Source: Balneolaceae bacterium (GTDB lineage Bacteria > Bacteroidota > Rhodothermia > Balneolales > Balneolaceae). Taken from it: a stretch of DNA of 32,000 nucleotides. Both the position numbers and the translations under genes were made by a program. Under the pieces are notes generated by a model. It saw only the letters and a list, made by a program, of their open reading frames with translations, was not told where the DNA came from and did not search any database. The stretch is taken from positions 1,985,164 through 2,017,163 of the forward strand of contig OZ271839.1 of assembly GCA_965601825.1 (NCBI GenBank), written 5' to 3'. Shown here piece after piece: positions 9,199-18,093 of this stretch (position 1 is the first letter of the stretch; each line of letters begins with the position of its first letter).

Positions 9199-9223
9199 AA
9201 GCCTCCAATTGGAGGCTTTTTTT
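9199..9223 (+). terminator. Rho-independent terminator closing the pdh operon, placed between convergent genes
   Basis: AAGCCTCC (9199-9206) - AATT - GGAGGCTT (9211-9218) perfect 8-bp stem running into a 7-T tract (9217-9223). The stop of the convergent - strand gene (9222-9224) abuts it. Confidence 0.75.
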
Positions 9224-11066
9224 ATGGAGTATACTCTAGGACAAAAATTACTGGTTCTGTGTTAAACACAGAATTCTGTAATAGATTAAATATCCTTCTG
9301 GTTTCATCCCAGCTGATGGATTGACCTGTCATCACAAAAAATTGCCCACTAGTTAACTCTTCAACTCGAGTATTAACCCCTGATTCTGACCGAACCTGTT
9401 GTGCAAGAGTTTCTGCAAATTGTTGATCGGAAAACGAGTTAACCTGTATTTGATAAGCATACTGATAATCAAAAGCTGTTTCCGGCTGATGACGAATAAA
9501 AAGGTTTGAAGTGATGCCTAATTCTCTAAATGATCTAAGTTGCGTTAGTACCTCATTTCTGTCGGTATATGGACCAGTAAGAATGTTATAAGTGTCAGAT
9601 ACACGATTCATGTAAGCTTGTACATTGTACTGATCAAACAACTCCATTGTGAAATTCAAACCATTCGTTCGATCCTGAAAAGCCCCAAATTGAATCAAAT
9701 ACTTAACCGGCTTAGGACGGTTAATAGTATTATTGTAGCACTGATGAACCAAGCTAACATTCGAATCACTTAACTGCGATGAGATTGTACTCTGCTTGGA
9801 AATAGCATCGCTAAATGAAGAAATCGCAGCAGTTCGAATTGAATAAGCTTCATTATTGAAAGTTAAAATCACTGGTTCTGCTATAGCAGTTTCAATTCTG
9901 GCTGCTTGTTGAAAAGCGGTTTGAAGTCCATCATACTCACCCAATCTAACTGCAAATTGACAACGGGCATCTACTCTTAGTAAAGAGGGCAGATTATTCG
10001 TTACAGGTATTATTTCCGGTTCAGGCTCTGGTTCAGGAGTAGTTGGAATTTCTCTAATAGGTTGTTGAAGTGGAGTTGGTTCCGTTTCAGGTTGAAGAGT
10101 TGTTTCATCTTGAGTTGATTCGTCTCGAACAGATTCCGTTTCATTAGCATCATTTCCATTAGGTTCAGCTGCTTGTTCACTTGCTTCTCGTTGCGCTTCG
10201 TCAATCCTATTTTGGTCAATTAAAGTGACGATAGCAGGTTGGTCAGCTAATACAACAATATCTTCCTCAACTGGAGTTGTTATTTCATTTGACTCTGGTG
10301 TTTGATCTTCAACTTCAACCTGATTTGTAGTTTCTTCAGCAAGTTCATCTTGTCGCTCTTCAAGTAAATTTTCTGTGGTATAGTAGAGACGAAGAACTAC
10401 GCGCCTATTTTGTTCTTTACTAGCTGCAAAAGGAAAACCAAGTGAATCATATTGAATTACCGGGCGCGAATCTGCATATCCGGAAGCTTTTAATCTTTTC
10501 GATTCGATACCCAGATCATTAAAGTACTTTACCACATTTGCAGCACGTGCCGTGGAGAGCTCCCAATTCGAGGGATATGCAACTGAAGAAATAGGATTAT
10601 TATCAGTGTGACCTTCTACATCGATATTAAAATCATTGTATTCGAGTTGCTGCATGGCGATCAACACTCGATCTAATAAATACTCTGCATCGGGTTGAAG
10701 TCTCGCTTCACCGGAGCTATAGAGGTAATCACTATTAAATCTGATTTTCAGATCATTCAAGTCGCGAATGATTTCTAGATTTCCGGCATCAATTTCAGGT
10801 TCCAAAAGTGTGAAAAGTTCATCTTGTATATTTCCGATAGGGGTGGTGAAGAACTCGGTTTCATCAGAAAACTTACCAAATAGTTCAGATAGAGAAGAAA
10901 ATTCGGTTTTTGTGATTTGAGATACAGCAAGAAGAATAATTAAAAAACCGAGTACAATCGTGATAATATCCAGGTAGCTAACTTGCCAACTAGATTCTTC
11001 TTCTTCCTCAAATTCTTGAAGAGGGAAAAGAGAGTGTTTAATTATTATTTGATCTCGTTTTTTCAA
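9222..11066 (-). CDS. MotB/OmpA-family stator-like protein with acidic Pro/Thr linker and three C-terminal SPOR-like domains
   Basis: TTG is the only in-frame start. W-QVSYLD-IITIVLGFLIILL single TM carrying the conserved MotB-type Asp (D33). OmpA-like core DVEGHTDNNP...NWELSTARAANVVKYF...GYADSRP...NRRVV. aa 231-352 E/T/P-rich linker (PEPEPEPE). aa 366-612 three SPOR-like repeats (YLIQFGAFQDRTNG...YNILTGPYTDRNEV; YQIQVNSFSDQQFAE...FFVMTGQSISWDET). Confidence 0.8.
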   Translation of the reverse strand: MKKRDQIIIKHSLFPLQEFEEEEESSWQVSYLDIITIVLGFLIILLAVSQITKTEFSSLSELFGKFSDETEFFTTPIGNIQDELFTLLEPEIDAGNLEIIRDLNDLKIRFNSDYLYSSGEARLQPDAEYLLDRVLIAMQQLEYNDFNIDVEGHTDNNPISSVAYPSNWELSTARAANVVKYFNDLGIESKRLKASGYADSRPVIQYDSLGFPFAASKEQNRRVVLRLYYTTENLLEERQDELAEETTNQVEVEDQTPESNEITTPVEEDIVVLADQPAIVTLIDQNRIDEAQREASEQAAEPNGNDANETESVRDESTQDETTLQPETEPTPLQQPIREIPTTPEPEPEPEIIPVTNNLPSLLRVDARCQFAVRLGEYDGLQTAFQQAARIETAIAEPVILTFNNEAYSIRTAAISSFSDAISKQSTISSQLSDSNVSLVHQCYNNTINRPKPVKYLIQFGAFQDRTNGLNFTMELFDQYNVQAYMNRVSDTYNILTGPYTDRNEVLTQLRSFRELGITSNLFIRHQPETAFDYQYAYQIQVNSFSDQQFAETLAQQVRSESGVNTRVEELTSGQFFVMTGQSISWDETRRIFNLLQNSVFNTEPVIFVLEYTP

Positions 11067-11078
11067 GAGGCATAGAAA

Positions 11079-11876
11079 TTAGATCATATTTCTATTTCTT
11101 CGCATATGAGCTTGAAGACGATCATAAATCTGAAGAGCAGTTTTATTCTCTTCAATTAGAATAATGCCTTCTAAAATCAATTTCTCTCGAAAATATCGTA
11201 AAGAAGCTACATTATTCATTTTCTTCGACATTGGCGTAAAAATGAAATTCCCTATTAAAATCCCATATAAAGTGGTCATAAGAGCAGCGCCAAGACCGGC
11301 TAGTAGTGACTCAACTTCACTAAAGCCGGATAGAATAACGATTAGGCCGAAAAGGGTTCCGAGCATACCAAAAACCGGTGAAGTCTTACCCATGCTTGCA
11401 ATAATTTGATTTACCAGTTGCTGTCGGGTATAGTTCTCTTCAATATTGATTTCGCCCAGTTCTCTTAAATCTTCAGTGGTATAATTAGTATCTAATACAG
11501 AGAAAAGGTATCCCTCAAACTGATCTGCATATTCTTCACTTAGTTGAGAAACAGCAGTAAATTTGTCTTGTTTGATCAGTTTTTGCCAGTCCATGATGCG
11601 TTGGATATCAGACTCGAGTACTTCTGGTGTTATTGTGCTGTAAGAGAATAGCTTCGTACTTTCAACTAGTGCTCTAAGTACACTATTGAACGGATAGCTA
11701 ATAAAAACACTTGCGGTAATTCCGCCAAAAACAATAGCCAAACTTGGCAAATTTAGAAACTCAAAACGCGATGGTATTAGATCGTATTCTGTAAATCCAA
11801 CCACTAATAACGCTCCCCAAACTAAAATGAGTAGAGAGATGAGAAAACATAAAATATTAAGGATCGAGGTACGCAT
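11079..11876 (-). CDS. MotA-type (MotA/TolQ/ExbB family) proton-channel protein, 4-TM flagellar-stator-like topology
   Basis: Two N-terminal TM helices, ~95-aa cytoplasmic loop, two C-terminal TM helices with SPVFGMLGTLFGLI and LGAALMTTLYGILIGNFIFTPM family signatures. C-terminal LILEGIILIEENKTALQIYDRL resembles the MotA tail. 12 nt upstream of the MotB-like gene. Confidence 0.85.
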   Translation of the reverse strand: MRTSILNILCFLISLLILVWGALLVVGFTEYDLIPSRFEFLNLPSLAIVFGGITASVFISYPFNSVLRALVESTKLFSYSTITPEVLESDIQRIMDWQKLIKQDKFTAVSQLSEEYADQFEGYLFSVLDTNYTTEDLRELGEINIEENYTRQQLVNQIIASMGKTSPVFGMLGTLFGLIVILSGFSEVESLLAGLGAALMTTLYGILIGNFIFTPMSKKMNNVASLRYFREKLILEGIILIEENKTALQIYDRLQAHMRRNRNMI

Positions 11877-11882
11877 GTAGGA

Positions 11883-12407
11883 CTAAAATGCCTTCTTTAA
11901 ATTTTCATCTATCAGGCCATTATTTTGTAACTGCTGGATAATGTAAGTGGATGAAGGTATGGGAACCTCAGGGTCCATTTCAAGTGCTCGACGCCATTGA
12001 TTTACAAATTCATTTATATATCCAAGTCCTAGATAAATGCTGCCCCTAAGTGCTAATACATCAGCATTTTCTTTAATTAAAGCCGCTCTGTTTATAAGGA
12101 ATAATGCATTTTCAAAATCACCGGAATAAAAATGTTGTTGAGCCAGTATATAATAGTTTGTCAGAGTATTTGCCTGGGCCTGATATCTGGAGTAAATATC
12201 GTCTTTGTAGAGCTCAATAAGGGCTTGTCTTAATTCTTCTTCTTTGGCTTGTGCCTGTGCAATACTATCTGCTTCTGGACTAATGATTAATTCCTGAGAA
12301 TCTACTGCACTTGTTCCACCATCAGAATCAGTTAACTCACCAGATGAACCGCAGTTAATTACGAATAGTGTAAAAAAGACCGCAATTGATGTGAGCCAAA
12401 ATTTCAT
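11883..12407 (-). CDS. TPR-repeat lipoprotein
   Basis: MKFWLTSIAVFFTLFVINC: signal peptide ending in Cys (lipobox-like). The rest reads as TPR-like helical repeats. ATG 12407 preferred over tracked TTG 12410. Gaps of 16 nt and 6 nt to its neighbours. Confidence 0.6.
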   Translation of the reverse strand: MKFWLTSIAVFFTLFVINCGSSGELTDSDGGTSAVDSQELIISPEADSIAQAQAKEEELRQALIELYKDDIYSRYQAQANTLTNYYILAQQHFYSGDFENALFLINRAALIKENADVLALRGSIYLGLGYINEFVNQWRRALEMDPEVPIPSSTYIIQQLQNNGLIDENLKKAF

Positions 12408-12426
12408 CAATCAATAAGATGTTGAG

Positions 12427-14283
12427 TTATGAGTAGCTGGCATTTTTTCTAATGGAATTCATCAAGATAGCTTTAGCGTATTCCGTTTGTTTAGTTGGAA
12501 TATCTTTTAGCTCGATAAGTTCCATTCTGAGTAGTCTCTGTTCTCTTTTAGGGCGCGCTGATAATATTTTTGTGATGATAGCTTCATCAAGCCCAACTAT
12601 AGCGTCTAAAAGTGTTTCAGTATTCAATGAACGAACAGCTCTTTTAATAATCTCATCGCTCAATTCTGGTAGCTGTTCAATAGTAATGAATTGCTTTTCA
12701 AGGATGGCCCCAACGATTGAACCAGTAGCTTTTAGTTCATCGATGTATCTTTTTTGTTCGTGAACCGGAAGTCGTTCAAGGATAGGGTAGATGTGCTCTG
12801 CACCGTATTGCTCACTTCTTTCAGCTTCGACTAAATCCATTGCTTTATCAAACAATTCAGACGATATCCTTTGCTGTTGATCGTTGGTTAAGTTATTCAA
12901 AGACGCCATTTGAAGCATGATCTTAGCAGCAATTTCCTTATCCAGCTTCTCAATAAACTCTGCAGCTGAGTCGTCCGGTAAATATTGTAGAATGAAAGCA
13001 CCGGATAAGCTATCCTCAGTTTCAAGTAAGGTGAGAATGTGGTGATTTGAAATATGATCTAAAAATTTAAATAAAGAGAATTTGTTTCGCTTACTCTCAG
13101 AAATCGTATCCTTTGCACCTTTTTCTAACATCTTCGCAAAATCAGTAACAACTTCTTTTCTACGGTCTGTTGTTAAATCAGGAAGTTCCATTACACTATC
13201 AATAACTGTATCGTAATCTTCCGGATGTAATTCTCGTTTTAACGTTCTAAGCAGATGTTTATCAACAGCTAGAATTACTTCAGCAGCTTTTCTGGCACCA
13301 TTCTCTTCTTCACTTAACCAGTATCTGAAAATTGTAGCAACTTCATCCGGCTTATTAAAGAAGGCTTCAACAACTTCCTCTTTTGTATTGATGAAAGTAT
13401 CAACACTTACTTCTTCAACTACATCAGTTTCCTCGGGTTCTTGAAAAGCAATAGGCTGAGGTGCATATTCATTTTTAAATGCTTCTCTAAACTCACGAAT
13501 AGGAATTTGGGGCGGTGGTTTATTCATTAAGCGATTGAACAGAATGGTTAAACCAAAGAGAAGCATCAAAGCTAAAGCCGGGATATACGTATATATCGAA
13601 TTGTAATCCGGTAGTGTTTGTGGCGTTATTGTAGTTGCCGTGATTGGTTCAGGCCTTTCAGAGAAGTCAGGAATGGCTAATTGCGAGATAATTATCTCAT
13701 CGCCACGAGCTTCGTTGGTTTTTACAGCTATACTTGTAATAAATCGCATCAACTCTAATTGTTCAGCAGTTAGAGAAGTATCAGCATAGATGTTAACGCT
13801 CATATTGATCAATCGAAGCGTCTTTATTGTATTCTGATTTACAATTACATCGGGCTGAAGACTAACAGAAGAAGGTGCACGAACATTTTCATCAGGTACA
13901 AAAGGAAGACCAGGCATGAACAGGTTTTGCCTTGGTTGAGACGTTGAAACAACTTGATTCTGACTAGTACCAATTGCTTCATCTACAAGCTCTGCATTTA
14001 TATTAACATCGATAAAAAACTTCTTTCTATTAAAGTAGTTTGCAAGAACTTGGATAATCTGGGAATCATACTGTTGTTCTAAATTAGTGACTCGCAATTC
14101 AAGTGACTGAGAATTTCCAGCGTCAATTGTAGCTTGTGCGCGAAGATCAGTTATAGTAGTTACATTAAAAATAATTAAGAAAAGAAGAGAAGGGGCGGCG
14201 ATTTTGAGTTCAAATATTGAACTGAGTTTAGAAGTCAATAAGTAAGATATAGGGGTATCTTTATGCATATTAGTCAGATGCAC
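12427..14283 (-). CDS. Membrane-anchored FliG-like protein: periplasmic ring-building-motif-like N-terminal half, TM helix, cytoplasmic three-domain FliG homologue
   Basis: aa 310-385 RKAAEVILAVDKHLLRTLKRELHPEDYDTVIDSVMEL...VVTDF (FliG-N pattern). aa 404-480 FKFLDHIS..LLETEDSLSGAFILQYLPDDSAAEFIEKLDKEIAAKIMLQMASLNNL (FliG-M / MgtE-N pattern). aa 525-612 LLDAIVGLDEAIITKILSARPKREQRLLRMELIELKDIPTKQTEYAKAILMNSIRK (FliG-C pattern with charged helix). TM at aa 229-252 (IYTYIPALALMLLFGLTILFNRL). Start is GTG 14283 or ATG 14268; either overlaps or abuts the usher stop (14270-14272). Confidence 0.7.
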   Translation of the reverse strand: MHLTNMHKDTPISYLLTSKLSSIFELKIAAPSLLFLIIFNVTTITDLRAQATIDAGNSQSLELRVTNLEQQYDSQIIQVLANYFNRKKFFIDVNINAELVDEAIGTSQNQVVSTSQPRQNLFMPGLPFVPDENVRAPSSVSLQPDVIVNQNTIKTLRLINMSVNIYADTSLTAEQLELMRFITSIAVKTNEARGDEIIISQLAIPDFSERPEPITATTITPQTLPDYNSIYTYIPALALMLLFGLTILFNRLMNKPPPQIPIREFREAFKNEYAPQPIAFQEPEETDVVEEVSVDTFINTKEEVVEAFFNKPDEVATIFRYWLSEEENGARKAAEVILAVDKHLLRTLKRELHPEDYDTVIDSVMELPDLTTDRRKEVVTDFAKMLEKGAKDTISESKRNKFSLFKFLDHISNHHILTLLETEDSLSGAFILQYLPDDSAAEFIEKLDKEIAAKIMLQMASLNNLTNDQQQRISSELFDKAMDLVEAERSEQYGAEHIYPILERLPVHEQKRYIDELKATGSIVGAILEKQFITIEQLPELSDEIIKRAVRSLNTETLLDAIVGLDEAIITKILSARPKREQRLLRMELIELKDIPTKQTEYAKAILMNSIRKNASYS

Positions 14284-17266
14284 CAGTGTTTACCCTCTCC
14301 TCTAGTGTTTCCATATCCGGAATATAGAGATCGGGGTTAAACCTCAATGCCTGTTCCCAATGTCTTTGCGCCTGTTCGATGTTTCCTTCAAAATAATAAA
14401 AACTTCCCTTTAATGCGTGCCCTTGTGCAGTTTCAAAAAGTTCTAATGATTCAGTCACTAAGCGGAATGCTACATCTATATTTTTACTATAAAATGCATT
14501 CTGTGCTCGAACTATATAGCGAAGGGCATCATCAATAGTTCCAAAGATTTCTTGGGAGTATTCTAAGATTTCGGGTGATGCTTTAATTGCATCAGTAACC
14601 TCAGCAATTGTGATTAATTCTTGTTCTGCTTCTTCGTCTAAGTCTTCAAGACTCCTTGGTGTTAATCGGAAGCTCAATCCTTCAACAAAATCGCCATTTT
14701 GTATTGCTTCAACTTCAAAATCAATTTTGTTTGGTGATGCATCAACTTGAAGGATATCAAGCTGTGATTGGTCGACACTTAAGGTATATGACCCTGGTGG
14801 AATTGGATATTCATAAAAACTGCCATCAGAAAATGTTCGTAGCTCGTTAATTACATTGCCACTATTATCAGCTAGAATGATTTTTAGACCACCAATACCT
14901 TGTTCCGTTGAATCGGGAAATACTCTATTTACACCACCTTCCATTACTCCAGCCATAAAAAATGGGATTTCAATTCTCTTGTAGGTATTTGGATCAGTTA
15001 TAATTGAAAACTTATCAACAGAGGGGACTAACATTGGATTATTGATAGATGAAATATTCATCTCAAGGTTATATTGAAAATACTGTTGCATCTGGTTGTA
15101 ATAGAGAACACCATTTTTAACAATAGCATTAGAACCACTTCTGTTAATTCGCATTCTGCCTTCTTCAATATCGTCATCAATTCCTTCATCGTAGATTTTG
15201 TTGTTATTATTATCAACAAATAGCTTAATGGCTGCTCCGGATCGCCCAACTTGATCTCTACTTGTTAGAATTAGGTTATCAAACTTGGTGTCATAGCCGA
15301 TTGAACCTCTTACACTGTTTGTTGTGCTATATCTATTACCTAGCTGTGTAAAAGTAGAATTTGCTCTAACTTTGTTAAAGTCTATAACAATATTAAATCG
15401 GATTGAATTTTCATTACTTAAGTAGTTTCTACCTAGAGTTAATTGAAACCTACCTTGCTTAAATACATTTCTTGATACCAAAAACTCAAGTGATTCCAGC
15501 TGAGACTGTTCGGCTAGGTATCTTGCTTGCCCTCGAACAAAAAAACCTTTAAATAAATCGGGTAATCGTGTATTTCTTGGTACAGTATAAGTAAATGAGT
15601 TTTCAAAGTACGATACTGGAGAAGGATCAAATATATTGTAAGTATTAGTTAGACGATCTGTATATCCCATTCGAATACTAAATTTCCTTATTCGAGTACT
15701 CAAATCTGTCCTAAATGTTGAGAAATTTCCTGTATCTCGTCTTCGGGTAAAATTTGAAACGCGAATATTTAGAGGGATTTCAAAAATTCTAAATGGGAAA
15801 AATAAGGAACCACTGAATTGATCTTTATTATTTGATGCATTGTAAAAACTTTGATTCTCACTAAAGTTCGTATAGTCAAATATGAAACTAGCACTATTAG
15901 CAAAAATTGAGTTAATCGAACTTCTGATATATCCATCATAAATACCTTCAAGCATAAGTGTTGTACTATTAGACAGTCTCGAAGATACTGAAGACACAAA
16001 ATAGGGGGTACTATTACCATTGGATTGATCATAATACTCAACGCCAAATTTGGTTGTTAGCCAATTTGTTAAGCCATAAGCAGCATTTCCTTGAAACGTG
16101 TAATTTTTACCAGTCTCACCAATAAAAAAGTTTTCAACATACCCGGCATTAGCTGTATAGTTTAATTCACCTTTTGGGATAAATGTAAATGGTATCTGAA
16201 TTCTGCTTCGCTTATTTATAATCTGACCAGTAGGCCCGTATATTCTGATATCTAATTGGGATGATCCATAATACCTAGGAATAAGAAATCGATAATTTCC
16301 AATTTCATCAGACTGTTGAAAATCCAGTAGTGAATTGTTTAGATAAAGTTCAACTTCTGATTGGGGAAAAGTAATACCATTAACTTCGTATTCATCAAAA
16401 AAAAGTCGAGGTTCAATTGGGTAATTAGAAATGCTAATGCCCGTATAAGGTGTCGTTAAAGCACCGCTTAAATTAGATTGTCCTACCGTAACCGTTGTTA
16501 ATGCGGGCTTTTCTTTTACTACATAACGCCATCGTAGACCATTTGTCTCTATTAGAGACACATCACTAGAAAAGTTACCGAATACTGCGCCCTGAATATC
16601 GCCACCTAATGCTTGAGCACCAATAACATTATTAAAGCTTACAGAACTTGTATTACTATTGATGGTAGTATTTACACTGTAATCGAGAAAACCAAAATCA
16701 AAGAAATTACGATTTAAGCCATCTCGTAAATCAAATAAGTTCTCATCTCTTCTAAGTAATGATGTTCTGCTTCTCTTTTGATCTCGAAGTGCCTTTTCTA
16801 TAATTGGCAGTTCTTGTAATGTATTTAGAGAGAGTGCTAGATTGTTAAAATCAACTGTAAAATCGAGTTCAAATACCGCATCAAATAAATCTACACGAAG
16901 AAAAGAGTCAAAATCTCCAAGTATGTAATCATCTGGAGAAATATCTATTCTTTTATCCTCAAACTGTATTACTCGTCTTTCAAAATCGATTAAATAAGGG
17001 ATTTGATCGATTGAAAAGTTTCCACTGATAATTAATCCTTCAACACTAGCTTCTAGCTGAAGAAGGGAGAAGAGTTCGTTTACAGGTAAGTAGAATTGAT
17101 CATTCTTATAAAAACTTGTGACATAAGAGCCAATTACCCCACGATGCCGGAATGTGAGATATACTTCAAATGCATCGTCATTATTTTGTGCACTTGCATT
17201 ATTTGGTAGAATGGAAACAAATGCAAGGCAAAAGATAAATGAAGCTTTAAGGCATTTGTAAATCAC
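14270..17266 (-). CDS. Fimbrial usher-like outer-membrane protein with extra C-terminal CarboxypepD_reg/Cna-B-like and TPR domains
   Basis: GTG start overlapping the chaperone stop (GTGA, 17263-17266). Signal peptide ...PNNASA-QN. VYLTFRHRGVIGSYVTSFYKNDQFYLPVNELFSLLQL resembles an usher N-domain. aa 274-362 YTGISISNYPIEPR..SEVELYLNNSLL..GNYRFLIP..LDIRIYGPTGQI..RIQIP matches the PapC/FimD plug-region pattern. Long aromatic-rich beta-strand region. aa 771-872 GGLKIILADNSGNV..TFSDGSFYEYPIPPGSYTL. aa 912-983 TPR. Confidence 0.6.
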   Translation of the reverse strand: MIYKCLKASFIFCLAFVSILPNNASAQNNDDAFEVYLTFRHRGVIGSYVTSFYKNDQFYLPVNELFSLLQLEASVEGLIISGNFSIDQIPYLIDFERRVIQFEDKRIDISPDDYILGDFDSFLRVDLFDAVFELDFTVDFNNLALSLNTLQELPIIEKALRDQKRSRTSLLRRDENLFDLRDGLNRNFFDFGFLDYSVNTTINSNTSSVSFNNVIGAQALGGDIQGAVFGNFSSDVSLIETNGLRWRYVVKEKPALTTVTVGQSNLSGALTTPYTGISISNYPIEPRLFFDEYEVNGITFPQSEVELYLNNSLLDFQQSDEIGNYRFLIPRYYGSSQLDIRIYGPTGQIINKRSRIQIPFTFIPKGELNYTANAGYVENFFIGETGKNYTFQGNAAYGLTNWLTTKFGVEYYDQSNGNSTPYFVSSVSSRLSNSTTLMLEGIYDGYIRSSINSIFANSASFIFDYTNFSENQSFYNASNNKDQFSGSLFFPFRIFEIPLNIRVSNFTRRRDTGNFSTFRTDLSTRIRKFSIRMGYTDRLTNTYNIFDPSPVSYFENSFTYTVPRNTRLPDLFKGFFVRGQARYLAEQSQLESLEFLVSRNVFKQGRFQLTLGRNYLSNENSIRFNIVIDFNKVRANSTFTQLGNRYSTTNSVRGSIGYDTKFDNLILTSRDQVGRSGAAIKLFVDNNNNKIYDEGIDDDIEEGRMRINRSGSNAIVKNGVLYYNQMQQYFQYNLEMNISSINNPMLVPSVDKFSIITDPNTYKRIEIPFFMAGVMEGGVNRVFPDSTEQGIGGLKIILADNSGNVINELRTFSDGSFYEYPIPPGSYTLSVDQSQLDILQVDASPNKIDFEVEAIQNGDFVEGLSFRLTPRSLEDLDEEAEQELITIAEVTDAIKASPEILEYSQEIFGTIDDALRYIVRAQNAFYSKNIDVAFRLVTESLELFETAQGHALKGSFYYFEGNIEQAQRHWEQALRFNPDLYIPDMETLEERVNTGASD

Positions 17267-18093
17267 CTAATTGTATAAGAAATAGATCTAGTTTGTGTTT
17301 CAATAGGAATTATATCATCTGTAGGCACGTCGCTTCTACTGCTCTCAAAAGTGGAGGTAATGATATAATTACCAGCTGGTAAATCATCAATATCAAATTC
17401 TTGGCGATGTGCGCCATCGAAATATAGTGATGTCGAAACGAAAGCTCTTCGTACTTCAATACCATTATTATTTACTATTGATGTTGAAATAGAACCAAGG
17501 AAAGGGGAGTTGCCGCCTCTTTCATAAGAAGTAATCACAGAAATGGAACTTTCCTCTTCATTTGGTTCAACTGTAATATCACCAATCTCGATTCCAGTAC
17601 TTACATCACCAACTTTATAAAATAACCCAGTTACTTGCTCAATGGTGATAGCAACCCTTGCGCTAACAACATCAGTGGCTTGAAGCTCAACTGGTGGTGA
17701 TTCAGGTGTAGATGATGTTCTGATTCTAGCCCAATACGTACCGTCGTCTAAAGAATTATCTGCATTTATTCGAAGGCGAACGGTTTGTCTTTGTCCAGGT
17801 GCAACCGTAAAATTTCTTGGGAATGCTCGGATTTTATCTGCAATTGAGTATTGTAACTCAGAGGTACTATCTGTAGTGATAAGTTGCCGCGTTCCATCCG
17901 GTAGACTACCGCTATAAGCGAAGAAAAAATCCACTGAAATTTCCTGTGTTTGGTTTGAACTATTTATAATTAAATAGCTACCAAATTTAGAATCATCCGT
18001 TATAAATAAATTGGTTGGTGCAATAGTTACCTGTGCTCTAATACTGCACGCTATAAAGAAGAGTAAGAAAATAGATGATATATATCGTTTCAT
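17263..18093 (-). CDS. PapD-like periplasmic fimbrial chaperone (two Ig-like domains)
   Basis: Signal peptide. VTIAPTNLFI..SYLIINSSNQTQEISV (strand A/B pattern). IRAFPRNFTVAPGQRQTVRLRI..DDGTYWARIRTSSTP (PapD core pattern f.v.PP.f.l.Pg..q.vRl). VAITIEQVTGLFYKVGD (FYRP-like strand). A second beta-rich domain. Sits directly upstream of and overlapping the usher-like gene. Confidence 0.6.
   Translation of the reverse strand: MKRYISSIFLLFFIACSIRAQVTIAPTNLFITDDSKFGSYLIINSSNQTQEISVDFFFAYSGSLPDGTRQLITTDSTSELQYSIADKIRAFPRNFTVAPGQRQTVRLRINADNSLDDGTYWARIRTSSTPESPPVELQATDVVSARVAITIEQVTGLFYKVGDVSTGIEIGDITVEPNEEESSISVITSYERGGNSPFLGSISTSIVNNNGIEVRRAFVSTSLYFDGAHRQEFDIDDLPAGNYIITSTFESSRSDVPTDDIIPIETQTRSISYTIR

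Follow-up and report, generated by a model that had tools for sequence, protein, structure and literature searches.

We analysed a 32,000-nucleotide stretch of a Balneolaceae bacterium genome (contig OZ271839.1), hereafter the window, and found in it a minus-strand operon that ends in a MotA-like and a MotB-like gene. The gene order is chaperone-like, usher-like, FliF-FliG fusion, TPR lipoprotein, MotA and MotB, and the operon is tightly packed, with adjacent genes overlapping or separated by gaps of 6-16 nucleotides (Table 1). We observe that the MotA/MotB pair has the architecture of a flagellar stator in a non-flagellar setting, and that MotB is extended behind its OmpA-like domain by a linker and three SPOR-like modules. 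We favour with moderate confidence the reading that the pair is a flagellar-type stator of a non-flagellar machine, that its MotB is a chimera, and that the SPOR tail serves as a wall tether or address for a whole fibre machine.

The A subunit is of the flagellar kind. Besides a Pfam MotA_ExbB match, its near full-length NCBIfam matches are to flagellar PomA, MotP and MotA models only, and in the PDB it matches flagellar stator chains only (C. sporogenes MotA, Vibrio PomA, and B. subtilis and C. jejuni MotA), aligning with few gaps to residues 33-237 of C. sporogenes MotA and 25-242 of PomA. We found four hydrophobic segments, at about residues 8-26, 41-61, 168-188 and 193-213 (transmembrane segments TM1 to TM4), and a cytoplasmic loop of ~105 residues between TM2 and TM3. 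This bears out the initial annotation, which had preferred the four-segment flagellar topology with a large cytoplasmic loop to the three-segment form of ExbB and TolQ. The prolines of TM3 and TM4 are kept, and P167, Y204-G205 and P215 are invariant in 31 orthologues and common to the genome's own flagellar MotA. When compared with the proteins of the same genome, the window MotA matches the flagellar MotA at E 1e-24 and ExbB/TolQ only marginally, in the C-terminal part, at E 0.002.

The first part of the B subunit is that of a stator as well. Its TTG start codon aligns with the Met of homologues, and Pfam places MotB_plug at residues 21-63, OmpA at 116-207 and SPOR at 453-514, all above the gathering score. 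Across a set of 38 MotB homologues with 36-70% identity, which was used for all MotB conservation counts below, W27, Q28, Y31, L32, D33 and T36 are invariant (38/38) and the SYLD context is kept; the transmembrane Asp on which the initial annotation had staked ion conduction is thus conserved throughout. Invariant across the same set are the OmpA-type motifs GHTD (152-155), LSTxRA (170-175) and NRR (220-222). In an AlphaFold model made with the homologue alignment there is a transmembrane helix at residues 31-51, a plug-like helix at 59-69 with a low predicted local distance difference test score (pLDDT), and a confident OmpA-like domain, whose top Foldseek matches are the periplasmic domains of MotS, PomB and the type VI secretion system (T6SS) protein TagL, at template-modelling scores (TM-scores) of 0.83-0.84; the OmpA-like core is complete, as had been claimed. 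The full-length model returned OmpA-like anchors only, and the SPOR part was modelled separately. The genome's paralogous short MotB ends exactly at ...RIYY, the equivalent point where the extension of the window MotB begins. Puente-Lelievre et al. 2025 (PMC12505986) place the flagellar stators MotAB, PomAB and MotPS in a 'FIT' group and ExbBD, TolQR and AglRS in a 'GIT' group; by the four structural criteria of that work the pair looks flagellar-type in its sequence, having a four-segment A subunit with an expanded cytoplasmic domain between TM2 and TM3, and a B subunit in which a single transmembrane segment with Asp is followed by plug and linker and by an expanded OmpA-like domain.

Behind the OmpA-like domain, the acidic spacer and the three SPOR-like repeats of the initial annotation are both found. 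The linker holds 36 D+E vs 5 K+R and 37 P/S/T residues, has a pLDDT <50 over most of residues 245-357, and is unalignable among homologues, in which it measures 14-154 residues. Module 2 is a bona fide SPOR domain (34.1 bits in Pfam, with a cut-off of 21). Module 3 alone reaches 16.9 bits, below the threshold, and its profile matches the SPOR domain of CwlC (1X60) at E 5.5e-5, while module 1 scanned alone gave no Pfam SPOR match. All three are mutually homologous in profile-profile comparison with hhalign (module 1 vs 2, 94%; 1 vs 3, 96%; 2 vs 3, 98.8%), and modules 1 and 3 are assigned as SPOR-like because of this profile homology to module 2 and CwlC. AlphaFold predicts three β-α-β-β-α-β units with a pLDDT around 85-94, and in a separate model of residues 362-614 (pLDDT 85) one unit superposes on 1X60 with a TM-score of 0.78 and a root-mean-square deviation of 1.8 Å over 75 columns, which is the sole high-scoring match.

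In FtsN (Q251/S254) and RlpA (Q270/A273), a Gln in strand β1 with a Ser or Ala three residues on matters for glycan binding, as also in DamX (PMC6895207). Among the MotB homologues, module 2 keeps Q459 and F463 in 38/38 and A462 in 23/38, module 3 has the signature Q541-x-x-S544-F545 with Q541 in 33/38, and the β1 Gln of module 1 is present in 31/38. Furthermore, module 1 is bracketed by Cys369 at the start of β1 and Cys443 at the end of β4, both invariant (38/38) and analogous to the FtsN C252-C312 disulfide (PMC6895207), and R411 is also invariant down to 36% overall identity. Given the homology and the conserved contact residues, the SPOR modules are most likely to bind peptidoglycan glycan strands. 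As a description of the two proteins, the initial annotation is right in every part.

Table 1. Operon genes, MotB segments and adjoining features, in window coordinates
Feature	Position	Strand	Basis
MotA-like stator A subunit, 265 residues, four transmembrane segments, FIT type by sequence	11079..11876	-	Pfam MotA_ExbB, NCBIfam, PDB
MotB-like stator B subunit with linker and triple SPOR, 614 residues	9222..11066	-	Pfam, alignment, AlphaFold2
MotB transmembrane helix with invariant Asp33 (SYLD) and plug-like helix, residues 21-69	10860..11006	-	Pfam MotB_plug 21-63, AlphaFold2 helices
MotB OmpA-like peptidoglycan-binding domain with N-terminal extension, residues 77-229	10380..10838	-	Pfam OmpA, Foldseek, motifs
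MotB acidic Pro/Thr/Glu-rich disordered linker, residues 230-361	9984..10379	-	pLDDT, composition
MotB SPOR-like module 1, residues 369-443	9738..9962	-	AlphaFold2 β-α-β-β-α-β, hhalign, Cys369/Cys443
MotB SPOR module 2, residues 456-526	9489..9701	-	Pfam SPOR above cut-off
MotB SPOR-like module 3, residues 535-612	9231..9464	-	CwlC SPOR 1X60 profile match, hhalign
GC-rich palindromic hairpin	9199..9218	.	likely terminator closing the operon
TPR lipoprotein, constant member of the motor cassette	11883..12410	-	Pfam, locus comparison
Membrane-anchored FliF-like/FliG fusion, 618 residues, presumed rotor partner	12427..14283	-	Pfam FliG_N/M/C
Usher-like secreted protein, 998 residues; body residues 1-876	14270..17266	-	gene context, locus comparison
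C-terminal TPR tail of the usher-like protein	14270..14638	-	occupies the place of linker and triple SPOR in motor-less loci
Chaperone-like gene	17263..18093	-	context label

We investigated the flagellar link of the pair in 151 genomes of the order. The window genome has a flagellar locus of its own, with FlhA, FliG and motA-motB-fliL-fliM-fliN at 1.485-1.507 Mb and motAB-fliLMN at 1.494 Mb. A triple SPOR in a MotB-sized open reading frame (495-663 residues) is present in 41/151 genomes from six genera, with no disrupting stop codons, and these MotB-SPOR proteins form >100 clusters at 90% identity. In the genomes sampled, FlhA gave no match in genus g2 (0/22) or genus g5 (0/10); MotB-SPOR is carried by 18/22 and 10/10 of them, respectively, giving 28 genomes that have it without an FlhA match. 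The listed genomes of these two genera are 97-100% complete and many are single-contig. Five complete ones contained no flagellin and no canonical FliG, only FliF-FliG fusions of 610-650 residues, and their MotA-family genes are two of the ExbB/TolQ type plus one or two fusion-linked MotAs. The functional criterion of the FIT group, co-occurrence with genes for flagellar export, rod, hook and filament, therefore does not describe this pair. The operon context, the genome's own flagellar motAB elsewhere and the genomes without an FlhA match together indicate that the pair is not a flagellar stator.

Two other known systems were considered and rejected. For Zorya (ZorAB), PADLOC returned generic ZorB-model matches for MotB and none for MotA, the FliF-FliG fusion or the TPR protein, and the 265-residue MotA is without the long cytoplasmic tail of the ZorA type. 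For a Tol-Pal or ExbBD-like (GIT) system, the MotA similarity is marginal (E 0.002) and MotB has a full OmpA-like domain. Separately, the same genome holds a second, paralogous non-flagellar motor module (G000:C1:1109888-1117898; 1.110-1.115 Mb), in the order FliF-FliG fusion of 613 residues, a 359-residue protein, TPR lipoprotein of 207 residues, MotA, short MotB and a 978-residue secreted protein. Its MotA (273 residues) is 43% and its MotB (225 residues, without SPOR) 42% identical to those of the window, and no usher-like gene adjoins it.

Upon reading 63 loci across the order, six of which lie on contigs too short to classify, we observed two forms. Motorised loci (type A, n=30) encode an usher-like protein of ~990-1010 residues with a TPR tail, the FliF-FliG fusion, which is present in 30/30 full motorised loci, the TPR lipoprotein, MotA and a MotB with linker and three SPOR modules. 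Motor-less loci (type B, about 30) have no motor genes, and their usher-like open reading frame, of 1145-1549 residues, ends in a linker and triple SPOR; its body is 34-52% identical to that of the window. The type B triple SPOR is homologous to that of MotB: its modules come in the same order, and it shares the Cys pair, the Q..F signatures and the PV..LE ending. Whether borne by MotB or by the usher-like protein, modules 2 and 3 and most copies of module 1 keep the signature residues. In all loci read, usher-like proteins with a TPR tail accompany a motor and those with a SPOR tail are found where there is none, and the SPOR module is the last coding element of the locus whichever protein carries it. 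Both types adjoin pyruvate dehydrogenase genes in most genera, and both occur within genera g2 and g3. For example, in a same-genus pair (G077, type A; G120, type B) the usher body is collinear at 74% nucleotide identity, collinearity resumes just 3' of the stop of the SPOR-bearing gene at 78% nucleotide identity, and the variable segment between these flanks measures 5.1 kb vs 0.9 kb. The two forms thus behave as alternative cassettes at one locus.

Some loci depart from these forms. At L122:7811-12193 (-) and L166:498-4865 (+), usher-like proteins of 1460 and 1455 residues carry two successive triple-SPOR sets, that is six modules. Locus L153 (G128:C1:364373-377000) is a decayed motorised locus, which has lost MotA and MotB-SPOR; an usher-like protein with TPR tail, a 275-residue FliF-FliG fragment and a TPR protein are left, and right after them come the pyruvate dehydrogenase genes.

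The history of the tail was examined with trees, built as quick searches on related genomes. The usher-body tree mixes types A and B, with well-supported branches that force at least nine changes, and since both forms are mixed in it, the direction of the A/B event is not readable from it. We read the mixing as recombination of usher bodies rather than as repeated fusion. In the SPOR tree the MotB-borne and usher-borne modules separate, and a single clade of MotB-borne modules is not rejected and fits slightly better (approximately unbiased test, p-AU 0.65). Taken together, the two trees suggest to us one old split of the downstream block, with the usher bodies recombining afterwards. When the MotB-core tree is rooted with flagellar MotB, the SPOR-bearing MotBs form one clade (Shimodaira-Hasegawa-like approximate likelihood ratio test, SH-aLRT 99). 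Short MotBs, that of the usher-linked f6 locus among them, make up its sister group (SH-aLRT 90) and all of the outgroups. From these sequences, MotB-SPOR looks like a chimera of single origin that is limited to Balneolaceae. We infer as the simplest history that a motor cassette with a short MotB was joined once to the tail of an usher-SPOR gene, consisting of linker and three SPOR modules; physically, the cassette could have entered an usher-SPOR gene, or a motorised locus could have taken up the tail.

Among sister families, the motorised loci of f5 and f6 encode an usher-like protein with a TPR tail, and the f6 locus of genome G050 has MotA and a 225-residue MotB without SPOR; it is the only one of these loci that reached that far, and the f5 contigs end earlier or, in G018, have no motAB. 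One f5 variant (G018; L182:6892-8430, -) encodes a 512-residue protein made up of LysM, a FliF-like region and the FliG middle domain only, in the order usher-like protein with TPR tail, LysM-FliF-like protein, TPR lipoprotein, with no motAB adjoining; with LysM, a machine of this kind again bears a wall-binding module, here on a different subunit.

Among the best 150 of 40,613 matches in 1.84 billion representative proteins, about 17 full-length clusters were found, all of this family, past which the scores fall to MotB cores alone. The combination of two peptidoglycan-binding modalities in one B subunit, which the initial annotation had called unusual, is limited to this Balneolaceae family among those 150 matches. 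Additionally, ten longer MotB relatives were scanned and had no SPOR, and two of them end in C-terminal TPR repeats. These two, P0204 (402 residues) and P0217 (439 residues), have plug and OmpA-like domain and are MotB-TPR fusions, which hints at a joint action of MotB and the cassette's TPR lipoprotein. In the literature searched we found no description of MotB with SPOR, of a non-flagellar FliG/MotAB or of DUF4402, nor a paper on usher-SPOR proteins.

In the established stator, ions pass the Asp of MotB on their way through MotA5B2, docking opens the plug, and the OmpA-like domain grips peptidoglycan and takes the torque reaction. All sequence features that match this working are kept in the window pair, which would accordingly be expected to conduct ions as a MotA5B2-like stator, the last part of an operon that may build a non-flagellar envelope machine around a surface fibre. 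The FliF-FliG fusion is the putative rotor partner, on account of its strict co-occurrence in motorised loci. Residues 1-229 of MotB correspond to a normal short MotB of the kind in motorised loci of sister families, and residues 230-614 to the linker and triple-SPOR tail that closes the usher-like protein of motor-less loci. Besides the OmpA-like domain, this tail would tether the trans-envelope apparatus to the wall, on the component that must stay fixed. That the outer-membrane platform bears the module in motor-less loci, and that sister machines have no SPOR or have LysM instead, argue for a tether or address at the level of the apparatus and not one specific to the stator. With two MotB chains per stator, there would be two OmpA-like and six SPOR-like domains, and, speculatively, such stators might be stable rather than exchanging.

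A further step can be put forward only tentatively, and we think it rather unlikely: an anchor hand-over, in which MotAB drives the FliF-FliG ring and this ring shifts or rotates the outer-membrane platform, or the fibre in it, against the sacculus. It would fit the pattern of tails in the loci read, where the wall anchor is on the usher-like protein if there is no motor and, in Balneolaceae, comes back on the stator if there is one. The moving usher platform would then be released from the wall, as its TPR tail might suggest, and the stator doubly fixed. If true, this would be a trans-envelope, ion-driven rotary pilus machine made from flagellar motor parts.

Several observations weigh against a stator tethered through SPOR as we favour it. 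In sister families, as seen in f6, the motor has a SPOR-less MotB, indicating that a motor as such can do without the tail, and the linker is only 14 residues long in some homologues, indicating that a long reach is not essential. Three short proteins (P0128, P0129 and P0130; 210-249 residues) nest inside the clade of SPOR-bearing MotBs. Module 1 is weakly SPOR-like, with 1X60 as its top match in PDB sequences at a non-significant E of 0.12, and its β1 Gln is replaced by Arg374 in the window MotB (codon 9945-9947). With the three-domain model, Foldseek ranks tandem ACT/ferredoxin-like proteins above SPOR, though these have poor TM-scores (0.09-0.28 per target), and a fold search alone does not decide on glycan binding. 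Finally, the 'usher' label comes from gene context and is without sequence support: the 998-residue protein gave no Pfam, NCBIfam or PDB sequence match to ushers, including classical FimD/PapC (PF00577). Sequence searches with the chaperone-like protein were likewise empty, and its label is also taken from context.

Two of these points have a companion observation. Another protein, P0131 (287 residues), matches the end of the linker and the triple SPOR only, and P0128-P0131 are either fragments at contig ends or real split and SPOR-less variants. As regards Arg374, the window genome is alone among the 38 homologues in having it at the β1 Gln position, and module 1 may, by its sequence, bind glycan poorly in this genome.

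Of the alternatives, the one that survives best takes the triple SPOR for an address and not an anchor, directing the fibre machine to denuded glycans at septa or new poles and fixing its assembly site there. The residues of the denuded-glycan-binding signature are kept in modules 2 and 3 and most module 1 copies on both carriers, a tandem array of three would bind a rare wall feature with higher avidity, and the module is kept whichever subunit carries it. However, no amidase or other wall hydrolase gene is found in the operon or its flanks, the machine of sister family f6 is without SPOR, and the f5 variant has LysM, which binds intact glycan and so points to generic wall tethering. We consider this reading possible but unlikely; septal or polar targeting, which the initial annotation had proposed for the stator, is from the sequence possible for the whole apparatus. 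It is improbable that the tail is a historical passenger, with little or no function on MotB, left behind when the motor cassette recombined in frame with the 3' end of an usher-SPOR gene. The SPOR module is always the last coding element and the motors of other families do without it, as such a history would have it, but its long retention in 41 genomes of six genera and >100 clusters without disrupting stops, together with the invariance of Cys369, Cys443, R411, Q459 and F463 down to 36% identity, points to purifying selection on the tail.

We regard as very improbable that the modules are ferredoxin-like domains past peptidoglycan binding, with another ligand (the usher tail, a fibre subunit or a small molecule) in the manner of ACT. 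It would fit this that Foldseek puts proteins with tandem ACT or RRM domains ahead of the SPOR structure and that the sequence of module 1 is barely SPOR-like; module 2, above the Pfam threshold, module 3, with its CwlC match, the mutual homology of the modules, the 1X60 superposition as sole high-scoring match (0.78) and the periplasmic location on two different wall-adjacent proteins do not. Least credible of all is the reading drawn from the initial annotation, an auxiliary flagellar stator as in dual-stator bacteria that SPOR, a known septal-targeting module (PMC6895207), places at poles or septa: the pair is of flagellar type and the window genome is flagellated, but we dropped this reading on co-occurrence and operon context, as the operon holds the FliF-FliG fusion and fibre genes and not flagellar genes, a separate flagellar motAB lies next to fliLMN in the genome, 28 genomes have MotB-SPOR without an FlhA match, and the SPOR module alternates with the usher-like protein and is not specific to the stator.

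The favoured reading, a non-flagellar stator with a wall-tethering tail, was compared with known systems. With MotAB, PomAB and MotPS the window pair shares the four-segment MotA, the TM3 and TM4 prolines, the single-segment MotB with Asp, the plug-like helix, the OmpA-like domain and an A gene directly upstream of the B gene. In contrast to them it has no flagellar link, its operon includes genes for a FliF-FliG fusion, a TPR lipoprotein and an usher-like fibre system, pairs of its type are kept where no flagellar genes were found, and its MotB has ~385 extra residues (linker and three SPOR-like modules), which are in no described stator. The SPOR proteins FtsN, DamX, DedD, RlpA and CwlC (PF05036) share the β-α-β-β-α-β fold, the β1 Gln with Ser/Ala and then Phe, and the periplasmic location, whereas here three tandem copies, the first very divergent, stand on the B subunit of an ion motor (on the usher-like protein in relatives), with no divisome or hydrolase domain. 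The usher-SPOR proteins of the motor-less loci have a homologous triple SPOR at the same locus by pyruvate dehydrogenase in most genera; there the module is on an outer-membrane protein without a motor, whereas here the usher-like protein is TPR-tailed and the module is on the inner-membrane MotB. In TagL/TssL of the T6SS, PorE of the T9SS (type IX secretion system) and GspB/OutB of the type II secretion system (PMC9239104), a wall-binding module likewise fixes a trans-envelope machine to the sacculus, but here two wall-binding chemistries are found in one polypeptide, the second of them exchangeable between subunits.

To our knowledge, flagellar-type stators have been thought specific to flagella. 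The present family is one that appears to be kept under selection where no flagellar genes were found, linked to a FliF-FliG fusion and a surface-fibre system. MotB-SPOR is a 'Rosetta stone', with the same module on the outer-membrane platform in motor-less loci and on the stator in motorised ones, and this sharing would tie the motor physically and functionally to the platform and the cell wall. Motorised and motor-less alleles at one locus in one genus, and SPOR-less motors in sister families, are natural controls that could probe the job of the motor and how stators are fixed in the wall. New here are the allelic alternation of the SPOR tail between usher-like protein and MotB, the apparent single origin of the chimera, and the test of co-occurrence against flagella.

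Around the operon, the genes upstream encode DUF4402-type subunits, pilin-like proteins and a 2713-residue T9SS-sorted protein. At its other end, between motB and a convergent pyruvate dehydrogenase E2 gene, the hairpin is a perfect palindrome with an 8-bp stem, AAGCCTCC-AATT-GGAGGCTT, which was scored on the + strand, where the T-run lies; it is the likely terminator that ends the operon. The body of the window's usher-like protein is 48-52% identical to its relatives. Within the window's genus such bodies share 45-52% identity and are as divergent as between genera, and the usher-body tree disagrees with taxonomy and with locus type, which suggests, from the sequences, that the outer-membrane component recombines often or is under diversifying selection.

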